Source: a virus (Duplodnaviria > Caudoviricetes). From it: a stretch of 64,000 bases of DNA. The notes under the pieces were generated by a model. That model was not told the DNA's origin. It ran no database searches and saw only the letters and a list, made by a program, of their open reading frames with translations. This document shows positions 17,490 to 59,592 of the stretch, one piece after another. The DNA is taken from the IMG/VR virus record IMGVR_UViG_3300032092_000001; one strand, written 5' to 3'. A program made the translations under genes and the position numbers. Position 1 is the stretch's first letter; every line of letters begins with the position of its first letter.

Positions 17490-19319
17490 TTATCTCAATT
17501 CTCTTAAATCAAATGTACGTACTCCATCAACTGTGATACGTCCGTAGAAACGGTTGTTAACCATCTTCTTAGCGTAACGTGTCATGATACCTTTGATAGG
17601 TGTGAAGTTGAATGGGTTATACATAGTTGGAGTTAATTGTAGAGGTACGTATGGAGCGTAGATGTAACCAGTATCCAATAAAGATGTACCTTTGTGACCA
17701 ATCAAGATTGTATTTGGTGGGAAGTATGGGTCACGGTACACTTGGTAACGTCCACTCAATGTTCCAACTCTTTCAATACCCATGTTGTATTGGTCTTGCT
17801 CAGGAGCCGCGTTTGATACGTGGAAGTATTCCAAGTCATCAAAAATAGCACTGATTTCAGAAGAAACTACAATCCAGTTAGCTCCACCTCTTAAAGTAGA
17901 CTTGTGAATTTGAGCTGAGATTTGGTTAATCGCAGTAATCAAAGTCTGATTCCAGTCTTTTTGAGTGTATGGAGTAGCTTGGTTGTTCATTCTCTTCCAA
18001 CCGTTGTAATCCCAACGTAATGTCCAAGCCGCACCTTTACGTAAGTCACGTAAGATTTCACGGTCAATTTCTGCCGCAACTTGCTCAGACAATAATGCTG
18101 TCAATTCAGCTTCAGCGTCAATGTTGTGGAATGCCGCAACGTCTTGAGCTAATTCAGGAGACCATTGTGCTCTTAACTTTCTTTCAGTTACAGAAACTGT
18201 TACTGATTGTAAGTCAAAAGAAACTTCACCAATTTTGTCTTCAAATTCCAACTCTTCGTATCTCTTGAAGAATGCAGTAATTGGGTTAGTACCTGTAGTA
18301 CCTGTCATAGCCGCCGCACTAAATGTAATACCGCTATATCCATCAGGAGTTGCTCCACCACATGAAATACATGCTGGTACTTGAGTATCAACTTCTAAAT
18401 AAATAACACCATTAGCATCACATAAGTTATCATATGAACCACCATTACCTGAACCAGGCCATGATGCAGTTGCTTGAGAACCGTACTGAACGATACCTTG
18501 TCCGTATTTTTGAGTAACTACACGGAACAACAATGGAGTTGTTGTAGTAACACCCAAAGCACTTGCAAACGCTGAACTTGGTAACAATGTTAAATCAGAC
18601 AAAAATGCCTCATTATCCATTTCCTGTCCATCAGGACCAATCAATTTACCTGCTCCTGAGTTAGAGAAACCTGACATAGCTACAATAACTTTACGGTATT
18701 CCGCTCCACCATATGCAGATACAGACAATGAACCACCAGTCCATACAACTGTGTTAGTCACAGCAGATAACCACTGATAACGTCCTTTTGAATAGTCAAA
18801 TAAACCTGCTGGGTCTAAACCTGGCTCATTTCCTTCGTAGAATAAATCATACAAATTCTTAGCAATAGCTCCAGTGTCTGAATTATAACCAGCTTCTGAA
18901 GATGAAGGTCCGTTTGGTGCTCCGAATGGTGCGTAGTGACCATTACCATTACCATTTGCAACCGCTGGAGTCGCTCCAGTCCATCCTTGGATTTGAGGTA
19001 CAAAGTAGAACAATTTACCGATTGGTAAGTTCATAGCTTGTACTGATACGATTTCGTTAGCTAACAACTTAGAGAATACACGTCTGATGATTGGGAATAC
19101 AACCGTCTCAAAAGAACCTGAATCCGCAGTAGTTGCAGCTTCGTTAATCAAATGTGACGCTTGGTTTTCATACAACTGAGCTACATTTTCTTTTAGGTGG
19201 CCTTTAAGACCTTCTAGGAACCCTAATTTGTCCCATTTGTTTATAGTGTCTTCTTTGATAACTTTCAAGTGCTTAAGACCGATGTTACCTACTAATCCAC
19301 TTTCTAATAATGCTCCCAT
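17490..19319 (-). CDS. gp23: Major capsid protein, T4 gp23-like
   Basis: VFPIIRRVF, SVQAM..P.G..F, RKLRAQWSPELAQD, EIDREI, YAPYVPL, GIMTRYA; predicted maturation site LINE/A at E60. Confidence 0.95.
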   Translation of the reverse strand: MGALLESGLVGNIGLKHLKVIKEDTINKWDKLGFLEGLKGHLKENVAQLYENQASHLINEAATTADSGSFETVVFPIIRRVFSKLLANEIVSVQAMNLPIGKLFYFVPQIQGWTGATPAVANGNGNGHYAPFGAPNGPSSSEAGYNSDTGAIAKNLYDLFYEGNEPGLDPAGLFDYSKGRYQWLSAVTNTVVWTGGSLSVSAYGGAEYRKVIVAMSGFSNSGAGKLIGPDGQEMDNEAFLSDLTLLPSSAFASALGVTTTTPLLFRVVTQKYGQGIVQYGSQATASWPGSGNGGSYDNLCDANGVIYLEVDTQVPACISCGGATPDGYSGITFSAAAMTGTTGTNPITAFFKRYEELEFEDKIGEVSFDLQSVTVSVTERKLRAQWSPELAQDVAAFHNIDAEAELTALLSEQVAAEIDREILRDLRKGAAWTLRWDYNGWKRMNNQATPYTQKDWNQTLITAINQISAQIHKSTLRGGANWIVVSSEISAIFDDLEYFHVSNAAPEQDQYNMGIERVGTLSGRYQVYRDPYFPPNTILIGHKGTSLLDTGYIYAPYVPLQLTPTMYNPFNFTPIKGIMTRYAKKMVNNRFYGRITVDGVRTFDLRELR

Positions 19320-20819: not shown

Positions 20820-20887
20820 TATAGTATTTTATTGATAAATATATCATAGTGTGAAAAAATCTTATTTTTTAATGTTTAGGCATAAAT

Positions 20888-21153: not shown

Positions 21154-21873
21154 TTATTTTCCTAAATAATCGGAAAGTTTACTCATTAAATCAAGCGATT
21201 TGTTTAAACCTCTAGCCGCTTTTTCTTCTTTTTCTTCCTGAAGGTTTTCTTCGTACTTATATCTGTCATTCGGGTCCGAAAAAAGATATGCCCCAGGAGT
21301 TGACGGAGACGACACTAAGTCAAAACAGATTAATTCAAAATCATCTTGAACTTCATTTCTATCTCCAACTTTTTTTAATGAACCAACACCTCTTGATGAT
21401 ATACCTAATGTAACACCAAGTCTTAATAAGTTAGCCGCTTGGTCTCCTTTAGTTGATACAATTCCTCTCTCATGGAATCCTGGTGAAGTAAGTAATAATA
21501 ATTTACCTAATAGTACATTACCGTCCCACCACATATCTGTAATAATGTGAGATACTCTATCTAAGTCAATCAAAGAAGATTCAGGGTGATTTAGTTCGGA
21601 TAATGCAGTTTTTCTACCAATATAATTTTTCTTATAATTTTCTGACTCTCTCTTTAATATTCTTTCAGGATATATTCTACCATTTCTATTTGGGGTGTCG
21701 TATTTTTGAAGTACCGCATAAAACTCAAAAGGTTTTGAGTAATCTTTAAAATCTTTACTCTCTTGTAAAAATTTTAAATTATTCATCTCACTTGGGGATA
21801 CATACCCCGCATCCATTTCAATTAGAATTCCTCTACCAATCTCAGTTGGACCTAATATCTTATAATTTTGCAT
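21154..21873 (-). CDS. gp21: Prohead core protease, T4 gp21-like
   Basis: NRNGRIYP, ELNHP, VSH.I, GISSRGVGS, DLVSSPS.PGA. Confidence 0.92.
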   Translation of the reverse strand: MQNYKILGPTEIGRGILIEMDAGYVSPSEMNNLKFLQESKDFKDYSKPFEFYAVLQKYDTPNRNGRIYPERILKRESENYKKNYIGRKTALSELNHPESSLIDLDRVSHIITDMWWDGNVLLGKLLLLTSPGFHERGIVSTKGDQAANLLRLGVTLGISSRGVGSLKKVGDRNEVQDDFELICFDLVSSPSTPGAYLFSDPNDRYKYEENLQEEKEEKAARGLNKSLDLMSKLSDYLGK

Positions 21874-32213: not shown

Positions 32214-34253
32214 ATGATAGAATCCGCAGACGACAGTGCAAAAAATCCAAAAAAGGTTGAGACTTCATCCAATACTCCAGTTTTAGATAACTTTAGCCGA
32301 GATTTAATAAAATTGGCTGAAGAAGGTAAATTAGACCCAGTTGTTGGTAGGGAGAATGAAATTCTAAGAATCGCTCAAATCCTTTCAAGAAGAAAGAAAA
32401 ATAATCCAATTATTATTGGTGAACCTGGTTGTGGTAAAACCGCAATTGTTGAAGGCTTGGCAATGAAAATCTTTGAGGGTGATTGCCCAAGGAATCTTTT
32501 AGATAAAAGAATTCTTTCATTGGAGATTAATTCAATTGTTGCTGGTACAAAATATCGCGGTCAATTTGAAGAGAGATTAAAGGTTATTTTGGAAGAAATA
32601 CAATCAAACCCAAATGTAATATTATTCATTGATGAGATTCACACTATTGTAGGTGCAGGAAATGCATCAGGTTCATTAGACGCCTCAAATATTTTAAAAC
32701 CAGCGTTATCAAGAGGTGAAATTCAATGTATTGGAGCAACAACTTTAGATGAGTATAAGAAACAAATTGAAAAGGACGGGGCATTAGATAGACGATTCCA
32801 AAAAGTAGTAGTTAGTTCCTCAACCAAAGATGAAACCTTACAGATTTTAAAGAATGTTAAAGACAAATACGAAACTTACCATAGAGTTAGTTATCCTGAT
32901 ACTATTCTTCAAATTTGTGTTGATTTGGCAGAACGTTATATCACCGACAGAGAATTTCCAGATAAAGCTTTTGATATTTTAGATGAAGTCGGAGCAAGAG
33001 CTCAAGTAGATGTTAAAAACCCTGAGATTATTGAGGACTTAAAAAAACAAGCTCAAGATATCCGTAATCAAAAATTACTTGTAGTTAAGAAGCAAAACTA
33101 CGAGGAAGCTGCGAATTTGAGGGATAAGGAAAAAAAGATTATGACTCAACTTGACACTGAGAAAAAGAAGTTTGAGCAAGAATTATTAAATAATAGAAAA
33201 GAAGTAATGGAAGATTTAGTCTATGAGGTAGTATCAACTATGACAAAAATACCTCTAACTAAATTAAGTTTGGATGATAAGAATGTTTTAATAAATCTTG
33301 AGGATGAATTATCTAAATCAGTTATCGGACAAGTAGAAGCGATTCAGAAAATTTCAAAATCAATTAGAAGAAATCGTTTAGGTATTAAAGACCCAAACAA
33401 ACCAATCGGTTCATTTATTTTCTTGGGGTCAACAGGTGTTGGTAAAACATTGTTGGCTAAGGAATTGGCAAAACAAATATTTGGAAGTGAAGATAATTTA
33501 ATCCGTGTTGACATGAGTGAATTCCAAGAGAAACATTCAGTGTCACGACTAATTGGTTCTCCTCCCGGATACGTTGGGTATGATGAGGGGGGTCAATTGA
33601 CCGAACAGGTTAAAACAAAACCATATTCAGTTGTATTATTTGATGAGGTAGAAAAGGCCCACAAAGATATTTTCTCAGCACTTCTTCAACTTTTAGATGA
33701 AGGGTATATGACCGACAGTTTTGGTAGAAAAATTAACTTCAAAAATTGTTTGATTATCATGACATCTAATTTAGGGGTTAAGAAAATGCAAGAATTTGGT
33801 AGTGGTATTGGATTTAGTAAAACTAATAACGTTTACGCAAATGAGGAGTTTAAGAAAAATATGTTAAATAAAGAACTAAAGACCCACTTCGCACCTGAGT
33901 TCATTAACCGATTAGATGAAGTCATCGTATTCAACACACTTCAAAATGAAGATGTTAAAAAAATTGTAGTGGTTGAGATGTCAAAATTAACTAAAAGATT
34001 AAATGATTTAGGTTATAAGATATTGTTTGATGAAAGTGTAATTGAATTTATCACTAAGGTTGGGTTTGATGATGTTTACGGAGCCCGTCCACTAAAGAGA
34101 GCAATTCAAGAAAAACTTGAGGACTTTATATCAGACGAAGTTCTTAGGGGAACTATCACTGAAGATAAAGAGTATCAAATATCAATTAAAGATGAATTAG
34201 TCCTAATTGATGAGATTAAGAAAAAAGTAACAAGAAAGAAAAAGGGAGAATAA
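32214..34253 (+). CDS. clpC: ClpC-type AAA+ ATPase lacking the N-terminal domain
   Basis: GKLDPVVGRE, GEPGCGKT, GTKYRGQFEER, FIDEIH, GSTGVGKT, RLIGSPPGYVG, FDEVEKAH, UVR-like YEEAANLRD, IGF loop (GSGIGFS), GARPLKR. Confidence 0.9.
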   Translation: MIESADDSAKNPKKVETSSNTPVLDNFSRDLIKLAEEGKLDPVVGRENEILRIAQILSRRKKNNPIIIGEPGCGKTAIVEGLAMKIFEGDCPRNLLDKRILSLEINSIVAGTKYRGQFEERLKVILEEIQSNPNVILFIDEIHTIVGAGNASGSLDASNILKPALSRGEIQCIGATTLDEYKKQIEKDGALDRRFQKVVVSSSTKDETLQILKNVKDKYETYHRVSYPDTILQICVDLAERYITDREFPDKAFDILDEVGARAQVDVKNPEIIEDLKKQAQDIRNQKLLVVKKQNYEEAANLRDKEKKIMTQLDTEKKKFEQELLNNRKEVMEDLVYEVVSTMTKIPLTKLSLDDKNVLINLEDELSKSVIGQVEAIQKISKSIRRNRLGIKDPNKPIGSFIFLGSTGVGKTLLAKELAKQIFGSEDNLIRVDMSEFQEKHSVSRLIGSPPGYVGYDEGGQLTEQVKTKPYSVVLFDEVEKAHKDIFSALLQLLDEGYMTDSFGRKINFKNCLIIMTSNLGVKKMQEFGSGIGFSKTNNVYANEEFKKNMLNKELKTHFAPEFINRLDEVIVFNTLQNEDVKKIVVVEMSKLTKRLNDLGYKILFDESVIEFITKVGFDDVYGARPLKRAIQEKLEDFISDEVLRGTITEDKEYQISIKDELVLIDEIKKKVTRKKKGE

Positions 34254-55068: not shown

Positions 55069-55779
55069 ATGGGAATATCAGAATTGAGAGATTATTTGGA
55101 AACCGAGGTTTCAAAAAAGATGATAAAATTATTATCTAAAATCATGAAGAGTTATAATAGAGAACGTCTCTATCAAACAATTACAATATATAATGGTGAT
55201 GATGTTAATTATTATTTTTCACCTCATACAGAATCGGGCTCAATTGAACTTCCTCCATCTATAACAAATTATTTAGACAATCTTTATGAAAAAATATCTA
55301 ATATGGATATTGAAAGTAATGAAGATGATGTTAACTATTCAACAATAGAAGTTATTTTTGATTTTGATGACGACGTGTTTAAAGTATGGATGACTGATTA
55401 CGTATACGAAACTCAATCGTTTTCAACTGAAAGTGAGTTAGATGAAAACGATGAAAAAGAAATTATTGAAACTTTAAACCAATGGTTGAGTGAAGGTCAT
55501 AAATTTGTTAAAGTTGATTATAGTGGAGGTGGTGATAGTGGATATATTGAAAGTAATGGATATGGTGAAGGTGGGATTAATGATATTGGAATTCCAGCAG
55601 GTTTTGAGGACTATATCTATCAAATGCTTGAATCAAATTACGGTGGGTGGGAAATAAATGAAGGTTCTCAAGGAACCTTCATAATTAATACTGAAGAAAA
55701 GACTGTTACTTTAGAACACAACATGAACGATGAACGTCCTGTTGATAGTGAGTTACTAAAAGTACATTTAAACTATTAA
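55069..55779 (+). CDS. Hypothetical protein with DUF6878-like C-terminal domain
   Basis: YSGGGDSGYIE and GWEINEGSQG.F.I. Confidence 0.55.
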   Translation: MGISELRDYLETEVSKKMIKLLSKIMKSYNRERLYQTITIYNGDDVNYYFSPHTESGSIELPPSITNYLDNLYEKISNMDIESNEDDVNYSTIEVIFDFDDDVFKVWMTDYVYETQSFSTESELDENDEKEIIETLNQWLSEGHKFVKVDYSGGGDSGYIESNGYGEGGINDIGIPAGFEDYIYQMLESNYGGWEINEGSQGTFIINTEEKTVTLEHNMNDERPVDSELLKVHLNY

Positions 55780-56102
55780 TAAACTTGTATTGTTCTTTGT
55801 GGTCTGTCATCACCAAAATCAGGACAGAAATATACATTTACTCCGTCGTGATAGATTGCACCACCAACACCATTAGGTATCTTGTGTTTCTCATGGAATT
55901 TATCACCTAAGTCAATTTGATAATTTCCATCAGCAACTTTTATACACTTATTTTCCATTTCGTAACCACAATGATATTGTTGGTTTTTATTTTTATGTTT
56001 CATAAATTCATCAAATGACATTACAAATGATGCATTTTCATTCATTACTTTTTTAACAACTTTTCCTAATTGTCTTTCTGTTATCAAAATATTCTTTTTC
56101 AT
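55776..56102 (-). CDS. Hypothetical late protein with leader (MKKNILITERQL...MNE)
   Basis: TATTTAT 6 nt upstream. Confidence 0.65.
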   Translation of the reverse strand: MKKNILITERQLGKVVKKVMNENASFVMSFDEFMKHKNKNQQYHCGYEMENKCIKVADGNYQIDLGDKFHEKHKIPNGVGGAIYHDGVNVYFCPDFGDDRPQRTIQVY

Positions 56103-56115
56103 ATTACTATAAATA

Positions 56116-57834
56116 TTAACTTATATTATAATTACCATTAAGATACATTTCCGCTTCAGAATTTCTTCTGTTAACTAATCCCTGTAATCCTAATGTTTTA
56201 AAATTTCTAATCTGTTCCGCAGCCCTTTTATGGTCTCCTTTCTTAACTGACTGAATGAAGTCAGATTGTCTAACCCCACCACATCCAGCATTAAACGCTA
56301 ATGACACTAATGCGTCAAATTGACCCTGAGTTATCATATAACTTTTAAGTCCTTTTGATTTCCATTCAGATAAAAAATTCCTAACACAGTCCGCAAACTC
56401 TTTAGCATCATTGTATAGTAATTTTAAAGCCCTTGTTTCATCTATAGTCATTCCCATTCTAACATCATCACCAGTGTGACCCCATCCAATAGTTGCAACA
56501 CCAACGCTGTCTTTATATGCTTGTAATGCCGGCTTGCCCTTTAATTTTGCCAATCCCTCGGCGTACTTAATATGGTCCCAAAAATCCTGACTAACTTTCA
56601 TTTTAGTACCATCTTGTAAATTACTTTCCTCAGGTACGTCTACAGGTTTTACAATTGGTTGTGGTTTATCATACTTTGTCATAGTACTATCCGACGCTGC
56701 GGTAATATCAGGCATTTTTATTTTTTGCTCATTAACTTCAGGTTTCAATACCGTCATGGACTCAGGAAATTCTTTACTTAAAAATTCTCTGTTTTTACCC
56801 TTATATGGAATATTTTGTAAAACGTATCTAATTGCATTTAAACCTGATACTCTCTTATCATTGGCATCCAATATTACCCAAGGGTGATTAACCGTTGAGG
56901 TTTTGTCAAATAATTTTTGTTTAAACTCTGAGAATCGGTCCCACATGTCTTGCATTTTCTCGTCATTAGGGGAGTATTTCCAATACTTTAATGGTGACGC
57001 TTGTCTCATCTGAAATCTAGTTGCCTGAGTCTCCTTATCAATTGAGAACCATAATTTAAACAAATAATCTCCATCTTTAACTAAGTCTTTTTCAAAGTCT
57101 TCAACGTTTTCCATAAAGTCTTCATATTCCTCTGGAGAACCGTATCCCATCACTGGTTCAACAAGTCCTCTATTATACCAACTTCTATCAAAGAAATTAA
57201 TCATTCCTTTTCTAATTTGACTTCTATATCTATCCCACCATGCTTTTCTCTCCTCAGGTGTTGGTATTCCCAATGCAATGATGTTGTAATATCTTGGATT
57301 TAAATTCTCAGTGTACTTTTTAATAGTTGAACCCTTACCCGCAGAATCTCTACCCTCAAAAACAATTATGACAGTTTTACCGGTACTTTTAATCCACTCT
57401 TGCATTTTAAGTAACTCAACTTGTAAATGATATAACTCCTCGTTATAAACTTTCTTTTTAATTAATGAAGGTTCTTGTGGTTCAAATGAAAACTCTTCAA
57501 AATCAGGTTCGTTACTTATGAAATCTTCTTTTTTTCTTTTCTTTAATACCTTTATAATATTTTCAAAATACTTGGTAATGTTTTTTTCTTTATTACCTTT
57601 TTTCATTAAAACATTTCTAACATTTCTCTCAAGTAAGTCAAAATTAATGGTTTGATTAAAACCCATATCCATAATATCATACAATAGAATCTCAAGGTTC
57701 TTTGTGTAGATATTATATTGTTTTAGAATATCCGCAATCTCATTCTCATATTGTTCTGTCGGTTTCTCCTCTTCGTTTAATTGAGTTCCGAGTAATTGTT
57801 TGTATCTGCTGATTTCAGAAATTAATTTTTTCAT
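56116..57834 (-). CDS. ppk2: Polyphosphate kinase 2 fused to GH24 phage lysozyme
   Basis: PPK2: FEGRDSAGKG, FDRSWYNR, KLWFSI, WKYSPND, DANDKR; lysozyme: EG...YKDSVGVATIGWGH, QFDALVSLAFNAG, GLVNRR.E; single continuous frame. Confidence 0.9.
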   Translation of the reverse strand: MKKLISEISRYKQLLGTQLNEEEKPTEQYENEIADILKQYNIYTKNLEILLYDIMDMGFNQTINFDLLERNVRNVLMKKGNKEKNITKYFENIIKVLKKRKKEDFISNEPDFEEFSFEPQEPSLIKKKVYNEELYHLQVELLKMQEWIKSTGKTVIIVFEGRDSAGKGSTIKKYTENLNPRYYNIIALGIPTPEERKAWWDRYRSQIRKGMINFFDRSWYNRGLVEPVMGYGSPEEYEDFMENVEDFEKDLVKDGDYLFKLWFSIDKETQATRFQMRQASPLKYWKYSPNDEKMQDMWDRFSEFKQKLFDKTSTVNHPWVILDANDKRVSGLNAIRYVLQNIPYKGKNREFLSKEFPESMTVLKPEVNEQKIKMPDITAASDSTMTKYDKPQPIVKPVDVPEESNLQDGTKMKVSQDFWDHIKYAEGLAKLKGKPALQAYKDSVGVATIGWGHTGDDVRMGMTIDETRALKLLYNDAKEFADCVRNFLSEWKSKGLKSYMITQGQFDALVSLAFNAGCGGVRQSDFIQSVKKGDHKRAAEQIRNFKTLGLQGLVNRRNSEAEMYLNGNYNIS

Positions 57835-57860
57835 ATAATATAAATATTACGAAAAAATAA

Positions 57861-58004: not shown

Positions 58005-58832
58005 ATGAAAGACACAAAAACTTATGACGAGTTAGTTCAAAAAATGAGAACATTCTTCCAAGAAAAAGGATTTAAAGAAGTTCCAACACAATCAAGATTG
58101 TCAATTTTGGCAGCATGTGAGAATCCTCACTCAATAACAACATTCAATTATCAAGGAGAAGTTTGGCCGTTACCACAGACAGGTCAAATGTGGTTAGAAT
58201 ACGAACTTCTTAAAAATCCTGAATGGAATGGTGTATATTGTATCTCAACATCATATAGACAAGAGAAGGACCCAATTCCTGGAAGACATGAATTAATTTT
58301 CCCTATGTTTGAATTTGAATCAAAAGGAGGAATGAAAGAAATGATAAAACTTGAATCTGAACTTTTGGATTACTTAGGGTTTGATAAACCAATTGAGGTT
58401 AACTACGATGATGTTTGTGAAGAATATGGTGGAGTCCCAATTTTAGAAAACGAACATGAAACAAGAATGTGGGAAGAGAAAGGTCCTGTTGTTTCTCTTC
58501 AGAATTTCCCATACAGAACCAATCCATTTTGGAATATGCGAGAAAGTGAAAATAGAATATTCAATAAAGTTGATGTGATTCTCTACGGACAAGAAACAAT
58601 TGGTTCGGCAGAAAGAAGTTCTAATGTAGAAGAAATGAGAAATAACTTCTACACTATTGAAAACGGTGGATATTCTGCCAAACTATTTGAACTATTCGGT
58701 AAAGAAAGAGTTGAGAAAGAATTAGAAGAATTCCTATCGTTTGATTTCTTCCCTCGTTTTGGTGGAGGAATCGGAATGACAAGACTCGCAAGAGCTTATC
58801 AGTTAATGATGGAAGAAGTAGAAACTGTATAA
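58005..58832 (+). CDS. Class II aaRS (Asp/Asn/Lys) catalytic-domain-only paralog, probable asparagine synthetase A-like
   Basis: F.EVPT motif 1, QTGQMWLE, SYRQE...GRH..IFPMFEFE motif 2, GGGIGMTRL motif 3; 275 aa, no anticodon-binding domain. Confidence 0.75.
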   Translation: MKDTKTYDELVQKMRTFFQEKGFKEVPTQSRLSILAACENPHSITTFNYQGEVWPLPQTGQMWLEYELLKNPEWNGVYCISTSYRQEKDPIPGRHELIFPMFEFESKGGMKEMIKLESELLDYLGFDKPIEVNYDDVCEEYGGVPILENEHETRMWEEKGPVVSLQNFPYRTNPFWNMRESENRIFNKVDVILYGQETIGSAERSSNVEEMRNNFYTIENGGYSAKLFELFGKERVEKELEEFLSFDFFPRFGGGIGMTRLARAYQLMMEEVETV

Positions 58833-58865: not shown

Positions 58866-59030
58866 TTATTCTTTAATTTCCGACATTAAACGTCCCCACA
58901 ACAACATCTGAATAATACCCAAAAGAATTCCAATAGTCAAAATTGACTTATTCGGAGCATTAACAATCAAAATCATATCTACCGCCAAAGCCATCATACA
59001 AGCGGTCATTTTAAGTTTTAAGTTTTTCAT
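58866..59030 (-). CDS. Small two-TM protein (54 aa) missed by ORF track
   Basis: MKNLKLKMTACMMALAVDMILIV...ILTIGILLGIIQMLLWG; TATATTTG upstream. Confidence 0.6.
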   Translation of the reverse strand: MKNLKLKMTACMMALAVDMILIVNAPNKSILTIGILLGIIQMLLWGRLMSEIKE

Positions 59031-59115: not shown

Positions 59116-59592
59116 TTAAAATCTTACAGGTGGTACCACAACAGTTCCTCCACCGCCACAAGGACATCCGCATTTCTTTTGCCAATATGACGGCCATTTA
59201 CATGGATTAGCACAAGTAGACGCACAATTTCCAGGTGCAATATCTTCTTTTACATCTCCATCGCGTTGTAATCTTTTTTTCTTTCTTTGTTCTCCGATTT
59301 CACCACCATTATCGTTAGATTGCATGTCTTTAATTGCTGACATCATTTCTTTCGCCTCTTTTTTCTTACCTGACTTCATTAATTCTTTAGCGTATGCTTT
59401 AAGGATGTCATACCCGGCAATACCTAATAAACCAATTGTAGTTCCAACAATTGTTAAAATTGCATCACCTGTTTCCAACGCTACCGGTAAATACTCCTGC
59501 TCATTTACTGATTTTTTTCTTTTTGTTTCAGTTACCAAATTTTTGATTAAATCTGTTAATTCAGATTCTGTTAGTCTTATTTTCTTTTTCAT
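59116..59592 (-). CDS. Hypothetical protein with leader, hydrophobic helix and Cys-rich tail
   Basis: MKKKIRLTESEL...VTE; AILTIVGTTIGLLGIAG; CASTCANPC...CGCPC. Confidence 0.7.
   Translation of the reverse strand: MKKKIRLTESELTDLIKNLVTETKRKKSVNEQEYLPVALETGDAILTIVGTTIGLLGIAGYDILKAYAKELMKSGKKKEAKEMMSAIKDMQSNDNGGEIGEQRKKKRLQRDGDVKEDIAPGNCASTCANPCKWPSYWQKKCGCPCGGGGTVVVPPVRF

Follow-up and report, generated by a model that had tools for sequence, protein, structure and literature searches.

A gene at positions 56116 to 57834 (minus strand, stop codon included) of a 64,000-nucleotide (nt) stretch of viral DNA (IMG/VR virus record IMGVR_UViG_3300032092_000001; Duplodnaviria, Caudoviricetes), which we refer to as the window, encodes a 572-amino acid (aa), 66.9-kDa protein in which a complete polyphosphate kinase 2 (PPK2) is followed by a GH24 lysozyme. 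The gene is intact, both sets of catalytic motifs are kept, the phage encodes a prohead protease, and the candidate cleavage sites at the module boundaries are conserved family-wide. We lean, cautiously, towards the view that this protein is a precursor that would be packaged into the phage head and cut there by the head protease, both enzymes then being delivered to the next host.

In the scenario we propose, a precursor consisting of the leader (21 residues), the helical N-domain, the class-I-like PPK2, its short linker and the GH24 lysozyme would be made late. The leader would direct it to the prohead core, like T4 capsid-targeting sequences (CTS), and a gp21-type protease would cut after E21 (LNE/E, the slash marking the putative cut) and E369 (VNE/Q), yielding, within the DNA-filled head, a PPK2 of 41.8 kDa and a lysozyme of 22.6 kDa. 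At the next infection, both would be ejected together with the DNA; during entry the lysozyme may attack the wall, and PPK2 may turn host polyphosphate and nucleoside diphosphates (NDPs) into nucleoside triphosphates (NTPs) ahead of phage gene expression. An earlier note on this DNA had already suggested a polyprotein split at maturation, and this proposal fits every comparative check reported below, that is, the protease, the boundary sites, the leader of the split lysins, the permutation of modules, the predicted disorder and the shared upstream motif; what we infer is the mechanism, namely targeting, cleavage, packaging and ejection, together with the advantage that the phage would gain.

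Architecture of the Precursor

The 572-aa frame contains no internal stop and lies on the minus strand, which the earlier note had not given, as do all the features of the gene described here. The PPK2 catalytic core spans residues 122-366 (56737-57471). Pfam PF03976 matches residues 126-348 (E = 5.7e-71; 239.2 bits against a cut-off of 22.3) and covers positions 3-227 of the 229 in the profile, which bears out the claim of a complete enzyme. The Walker motifs named in the earlier note are intact: neither Walker A (GRDSAGKGS, 161-169) nor Walker B (FDRSWYNR, 215-222) varies among 25 relatives, and both align to those of the Francisella PPK2 4YEG. Residues 124-351 align to class I enzymes (Francisella 4YEG/5LL0 and Sinorhizobium 3CZQ, E of about 2e-63), the match to the class III enzyme 5LC9 being much weaker (E = 8e-26), so that by alignment the PPK2 half appears closest to class I enzymes, which convert NDP to NTP. 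Unlike the phage protein, these cellular class I PPK2s have no leader, no helical N-domain, no acidic linker and no C-terminal lysin.

The lysozyme domain, residues 410-572 (56119-56607), carries the anticipated Glu-Asp-Thr triad: endolysin 7M5I has the same residues at the positions aligned with E426, D442 and T448, and three relatives with the same architecture (P0002-P0004) keep them as well. Phage_lysozyme (PF00959) matches residues 437-560 (E = 5e-30; 104.8 bits against a cut-off of 22.3), and in PHROGs this half matches the endolysin family phrog_7 (E = 2.5e-40). The domain thus has the same GH24 fold family and matching Glu/Asp/Thr positions as endolysins 7M5I, 9KBS and 8B2S and T4 gp5. 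Unlike free endolysin genes, however, it does not sit beside a holin and, unlike T4 gp5, it is without OB-fold or β-helix. A Pfam match to Aromatic_hydrox (E = 0.0065) fell under the cut-off and was dismissed.

The remainder of the protein was delineated by structure prediction with AlphaFold2, on an alignment of 25 relatives. The leader (residues 1-21, 57772-57834), which ends in L19-N20-E21 and is a candidate capsid-targeting and cleavage signal, falls in a low-confidence segment, residues 1-22, that is predicted to be disordered. The following region had been described as a spacer of about 110 aa. The region exists, but it is not a spacer, since the model gives a confident helical bundle for residues 23-99, with a predicted local distance difference test score (pLDDT) of up to 91, followed by an acidic segment predicted to be disordered (residues 100-121, 57472-57537). 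This N-domain (residues 22-99, 57538-57771) is family-specific; within the family it is conserved, like the acidic linker, but it evolves fast, with 25-88% identity among relatives vs. 78-94% for the PPK2 core. The matches to residues 22-124 in the ESM Atlas were all weak and generically helical (features ≤0.77, TM ≤0.53), and we therefore leave the domain, which has no recognisable relative, without assignment. PPK2 (122-366) and lysozyme (about 410-568) are separate segments in the model, and the disordered segment between them, residues 367-394, begins exactly at V367. Both candidate cleavage sites therefore border segments predicted to be disordered.

The junction triplet V367-N368-E369, followed by Q370, is a candidate prohead-protease site and lies exactly where it had been placed, at 56728-56736. 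Beyond it, a Pro-containing linker (residues 370-409, 56608-56727), 82% identical to that of P0004, forms a cassette with the lysin and is conserved along with it. This linker includes an internal ATG (M374, 56713-56715) in an A-rich context, which is a possible alternative start for the lysozyme.

Glutamate Is Conserved at Both Module Boundaries

A [LIVM]-x-E triplet occurs within the first 28 residues of all 85 phage-type PPK2 relatives vs. 12 of 41 PPK2s with a short N terminus, and the Asp variant of the site occurs in 17 of the 85. The site ends at residues 18-25 in 72 of these proteins and at residue 11, as LSE or IIE in a shorter leader, in the other 13; a 642-kb huge phage encodes a standalone PPK2 with an 11-residue leader ending in I-N-E. 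At the other boundary, all 30 extended relatives have a [LIVM]-x-E triplet 8-17 residues past the C-terminal anchor of the PPK2 core, whichever module comes next. The junction reads EVNE/Q or NINE/Q before GH24, EVNE/Q before PF18013 and EVNE/Q before SleB-type PF07486, while modules matching nothing known, in proteins of 558-1430 aa, are preceded by ELNE/Q, KLNE/E, ILNE/S, TINE/S, TVNE/D or TVTE/G. At both boundaries, the flanking residues vary while the Glu stays (85/85 and 30/30). Standalone PPK2s terminate just short of the junction point.

The locus itself is conserved and exists in three states: it may hold PPK2 without any lysin, PPK2 and a lysin as separate genes, or the fusion. In the split state (L001-L003, PPK2 70% identical), the stop codon of PPK2 and the ATG of the next gene, for a GH24 lysin of 298 aa, overlap, within a syntenic order of divergent aminoacyl-tRNA synthetase (aaRS)-like gene, PPK2, lysin, leader-bearing protein of about 107 aa, DUF6878 and DUF6915. 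The free 298-aa lysin has a 13-residue leader ending in I-L-E/Q. Members of its family with the N-terminal module that starts SDPxNP have [LI]-x-E at residues 11-13 in 20 of 24 cases, and at 12-14, 14-16 or 25-27 in the rest. The mature start SDPxNP is preceded by unrelated types of leader and, in P0011, by a whole PPK2 plus INE. The comparison of split-state lysins with fused P0011 thus indicates that a lone lysin has its own leader, whereas one that follows PPK2 has just the site.

After the leader, the free lysins (P0270, P0272-P0295; L001 7101-7997) have an N-module of about 100 aa with the pattern SDPxNP..SYP..DEW..DWKTYY..KKW..FLRYWEPIY. It is common to GH24 lysins and to five proteins without PF00959 (P0285, P0286, P0288, P0289 and P0294), and in P0292 it is found with MORN and PG_binding_1. 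It is a putative docking or wall-binding module.

Modules also change partners at these sites. P0004 has the N-domain of another clade (25% identity to the window protein), yet its junction is 82% and its lysin 77% identical, with clade-mates at about 40%; in P0005, the core is 94% identical and the C-module unrelated. To judge from these identities, site, linker and lysin are swapped as one cassette. In two distant polyproteins the order changes: the same module lies after PPK2 in P0127 (1430 aa) and before it in P0128 (1116 aa), and the ends of the BLAST segments shared by the two fall on [LIVM]NE sites, whose frequency is 3-4 times that predicted from composition (8 vs. 2.2 in P0127 and 6 vs. 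1.9 in P0128). Several large multi-module proteins contain PPK2 (P0127, P0128, P0129-P0132 and P0136), two of which begin with MK[IV]KLTESQI-type leaders. Leader-bearing proteins of 186-206 aa that match no Pfam family follow PPK2 in L007 and L009.

Such sites are not confined to PPK2. Over residues 8-40 of the 84 open reading frames (ORFs) of the window, [LIVM]NE is enriched 2.2-fold (p = 0.009) and [LIVM]xE 1.4-fold (p = 4e-4), and control motifs with Asp or Gln in place of Glu show no enrichment. The proteins with such N-terminal sites include the scaffold-like protein and the products of genes bordering the head module.

The Phage Encodes a T4-Type Head Module and Prohead Protease

The phage of the window is tailed and has a complete head module of the T4 type. 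The proposed processing enzyme is a T4 gp21-type prohead protease (Peptidase_S77; 21154-21873, minus strand; E = 1e-25; phrog_207, 3e-44). The Gp23-type major capsid protein (MCP; 17490-19319, minus strand) has conserved [LIM]-x-E sites in its propeptide region, the last being INE at 58-60, and T4 gp23 aligns to it from residue 71; by position, LKE at 42-44 corresponds to the T4 cut. The other head-module genes encode a Portal_T4 portal, an acidic scaffold-like protein and a T4-type large terminase. The MCP is longer than that of T4 (609 vs. 521 aa), and its residues of about 120-290, which have no counterpart in the alignment to T4 gp23, suggest a large insertion domain.

More than 7,800 relatives of this MCP were found; contigs carrying MCP relatives measure about 294-329 kb, and lake metagenomes very commonly contain this phage clade. 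The PPK2-lysozyme gene itself was found in runs of lake and freshwater metagenomes from 16 studies, and no RNA data set was listed among those that contain it.

A Shared Upstream Motif

The earlier note placed a late motif 5 nt upstream of the gene. We find AATATTTAT there, at 57840-57848 (minus strand), a promoter-like motif of the class WRTATTTAT that stops 5 nt short of the ATG. The window contains more copies of this class than expected, 28 vs. 15.2 ± 4.0, with none of 100 shuffles reaching 28; an initial pattern, AKTATTTAT, showed no enrichment in the window (9 vs. 8.0 expected) and was superseded. Most copies lie just 5' of starts, in gene orientation, including those of the scaffold-like, protease, orf236 and terminase genes. 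At many starts the motif is 4-25 nt upstream (e.g., sites at 20835, 21889, 23196, 26946, 47984, 52146, 55056, 56109, 57840 and 60531), leaving no space for a Shine-Dalgarno sequence. WRTATTTAT is probably the late promoter element of this phage, with mRNA leaders that are very short or absent. Close to the motif, at 57851, an intergenic A-run upstream of the gene shows a one-base deletion polymorphism, seen in contigs from three runs.

Comparison with Known Head-Cargo Systems

Internal proteins of T4 reach the prohead core by means of a CTS of 10-20 residues, which gp21 removes by cutting after Glu, processing being blocked when Asp is there instead; foreign proteins fused to a CTS are packaged and delivered into cells, and Alt, an ejected enzyme, is cut at both ends (ITE-6 and LTE-619) (PMC9026906, PMC5694885, PMC3012670). 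The window phage resembles the T4 system of IPI, IPII, IPIII and Alt in its Peptidase_S77 protease, its Gp23/Gp20 head module and its short leader ending in hydrophobic-x-Glu. As in the window family, T4 leaders are exchangeable before unrelated cargo (PMC9026906, PMC5694885). Compared with the T4 CTS, the leaders of the window family are of about 13-21 aa and of several types. Unlike the T4 cargo, the putative cargo here is a PPK2 and a peptidoglycan hydrolase that share one precursor with a candidate internal site.

Giant phages process many ejection proteins likewise (PMC10052503). Phages phiKZ, 201phi2-1 and SPN3US have large heads with many cargo proteins cut after Glu by a gp21-related protease, in line with what we propose here, and their propeptides contain several sites (PMC10052503, PMC5694885). 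However, they are of another lineage, PPK2 and lysin cargo is unreported in them, and their motif is (S/A/G)-x-E or A-x-E vs. [LIVM]-x-E here.

Capsid-borne wall-cleaving activity has a precedent in the internal core protein gp16 of T7, which has a lytic transglycosylase domain, is carried in the capsid and is ejected at infection. It differs in that it belongs to a podovirus core stack, has neither CTS nor gp21-type processing, has a different hydrolase fold and is not fused to a metabolic enzyme.

Weighing Head Cargo Against the Alternatives

Several points weigh against packaging and processing in the head. The [LIVM]xE triplet is short and common, occurring about once per 40 residues in this AT-rich, Glu/Lys-rich proteome. 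The MCP propeptide does not calibrate the specificity of the protease since, in 120 homologues, all five candidate [LIM]xE sites are equally conserved and none stands out. No cultured close relative was found in the phage collection, where the best terminase matches are only about 27-30% identical. A folded oligomer of PPK2 would need unfolding to traverse the tail tube, and a late gene product is also present inside the producing cell, where it could act. We know of no lysozyme inside a T4-type head, and the entry lysozyme of T4 sits on the baseplate. Finally, the A-rich context of M374 is start-like.

The first alternative, which we consider unlikely, is an uncleaved bifunctional late protein that is not head cargo and whose place of action is the producing cell or, as a lysin, the tail. 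Leaders and x-E triplets would then have a different role, for instance in gene shuffling as recombination cassettes, as a translation or assembly signal, or as recognition elements for the ClpB-like ATPase. The brevity and frequency of the motif would suit this explanation, as would the exchange of lysin domains that is usual among endolysins and virion lysins, the naming of the alternative module PF18013 as a phage tail lysozyme family, and the ClpB-like AAA+ protein encoded in the window. It leaves unexplained, however, why Glu is conserved at both boundaries amid variable flanks, why a free lysin gains a leader exactly when it is unfused, and why permuted modules retain [LIVM]NE boundaries. 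Nor were an OB-fold or β-helix of a gp5-type hub found: Pfam gives only PPK2 and Phage_lysozyme, and a weak match to phrog_13211 (E = 1e-7) covers only residues 410-545, in the lysozyme part.

Two products from one gene, which is compatible with the cargo model, we judge somewhat less probable still. Initiation at M374 would give a leaderless 22-kDa lysozyme serving as endolysin, and the full-length protein would supply PPK2. The internal ATG pointed out in the earlier note is indeed at 56713-56715, and the 20 nt upstream of it are 65% A, GC-poor and the most A-rich of those before the 19 in-frame Met codons. A Met occurs 1-4 residues past NEQ in the P0001-P0012 group, and no second peptidoglycan hydrolase appears among the 25 window families in the matches listed. 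On the other side, no WRTATTTAT motif lies upstream of M374, the NINEQ fusion clade has no conserved Met near the junction, and no holin or spanin gene adjoins the fusion gene. The endolysin may also lie elsewhere in the genome, because the window represents only about one-fifth of it. In place of a holin-endolysin cassette, the lysin is fused behind PPK2, its neighbors being the gene of a 108-aa protein with a leader and the divergent aaRS-like gene, and the precursor has no signal-anchor-release or other signal sequence, its N terminus not being hydrophobic.

We give practically no credence to an assembly or sequencing artefact joining two neighboring genes: while some relatives do keep PPK2 and lysin as separate overlapping genes, misassembly is excluded by contigs of three other lake metagenome studies that cross 56728-56736 without indels (X6, 56160-57052; X8, 56222-56893; X4, 56639-56895) and by the same architecture in independent JGI, ENA and Logan assemblies (P0002, P0003 and P0004; 90%, 85% and 67% identity).

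Beyond the single gene, and with rather less confidence than for the head-cargo reading of the precursor, we suggest tentatively that T4-type jumbo phages of about 300 kb in freshwater use a modular cargo code. Interchangeable short leaders and [LIVM]-x-E boundaries would load enzymes singly or as shuffled polyproteins, and the injected PPK2 would be a regular cargo that often comes with a wall hydrolase.

Novelty and Implications

The earlier note knew of no described fusion of PPK2 with a lysozyme; this holds for the literature searched, in which we also found nothing relevant on PPK2 in virions or jumbo phages, yet the fusion is common in lake metagenomes, as one of the three states of the locus. 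The principle of a CTS and gp21 processing is known; what is new is the putative cargo, the polyprotein whose lysin cassettes can be exchanged and how widely the leader system extends. If correct, the cargo code would provide the first example of an energy-regenerating enzyme that is injected and of a lysin borne in a T4-type head, and phage heads would deliver more than anti-restriction proteins and polymerases. Mobilization of polyphosphate would then give NTPs before any gene is expressed, which is plausible in starved or phosphorus-limited lake bacteria, and injected PPK2 could possibly be useful against nucleotide-depleting defenses. The mechanism would matter ecologically because the phage clade is so common in lake metagenomes. 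For the loading of foreign proteins into T4-type capsids, the family could also serve as a natural catalogue of the rules that leaders and sites follow.

Neighboring Genes

Immediately downstream of the precursor gene, a 108-aa gene (55776-56102, minus strand) encodes a protein with a leader ending in MNE22 and has the same upstream motif, at 56109-56117; it is syntenic in relatives. On the other side, 58005-58832 (plus strand) encodes a 275-aa truncated class II aaRS-like protein (tRNA-synt_2; phrog_29758, E = 4e-97), which neighbors PPK2 divergently in close relatives of both the fused and the split state (L001-L005 and the P0007 contig).

Further along, 59116-59592 (minus strand) encodes a 158-aa protein with a type-A leader, MKKKIRLTESELT..., containing VTE and VNE sites. 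After the leader, this protein has a predicted membrane-spanning stretch and a Cys/Gly-rich C terminus, and relatives keep it (L004 4257-4679). It would be a head-carried membrane protein if the leaders do act as capsid-targeting signals. Between these genes, a 54-aa ORF (58866-59030, minus strand), about 1 kb from the lysin gene, contains two hydrophobic segments and has 54-aa counterparts in L004 (4783-4947) and L001 (4762-4926); it is possibly a small membrane or holin-like protein.

The ClpB-like AAA+ protein is encoded at 32214-34253 (plus strand; phrog_4871, E = 4e-235; AAA_2 and ClpB_D2-small). An FKBP-type peptidyl-prolyl isomerase is also encoded in the window, and near PPK2 in relatives. 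The two could be chaperones for the folding or unfolding of cargo. Finally, a neighbor of PPK2 in one relative (L007 525-2426, minus strand) carries a Por_Secre_tail domain, which is a sorting domain of the type IX secretion system (T9SS) and hints at Bacteroidota as hosts.

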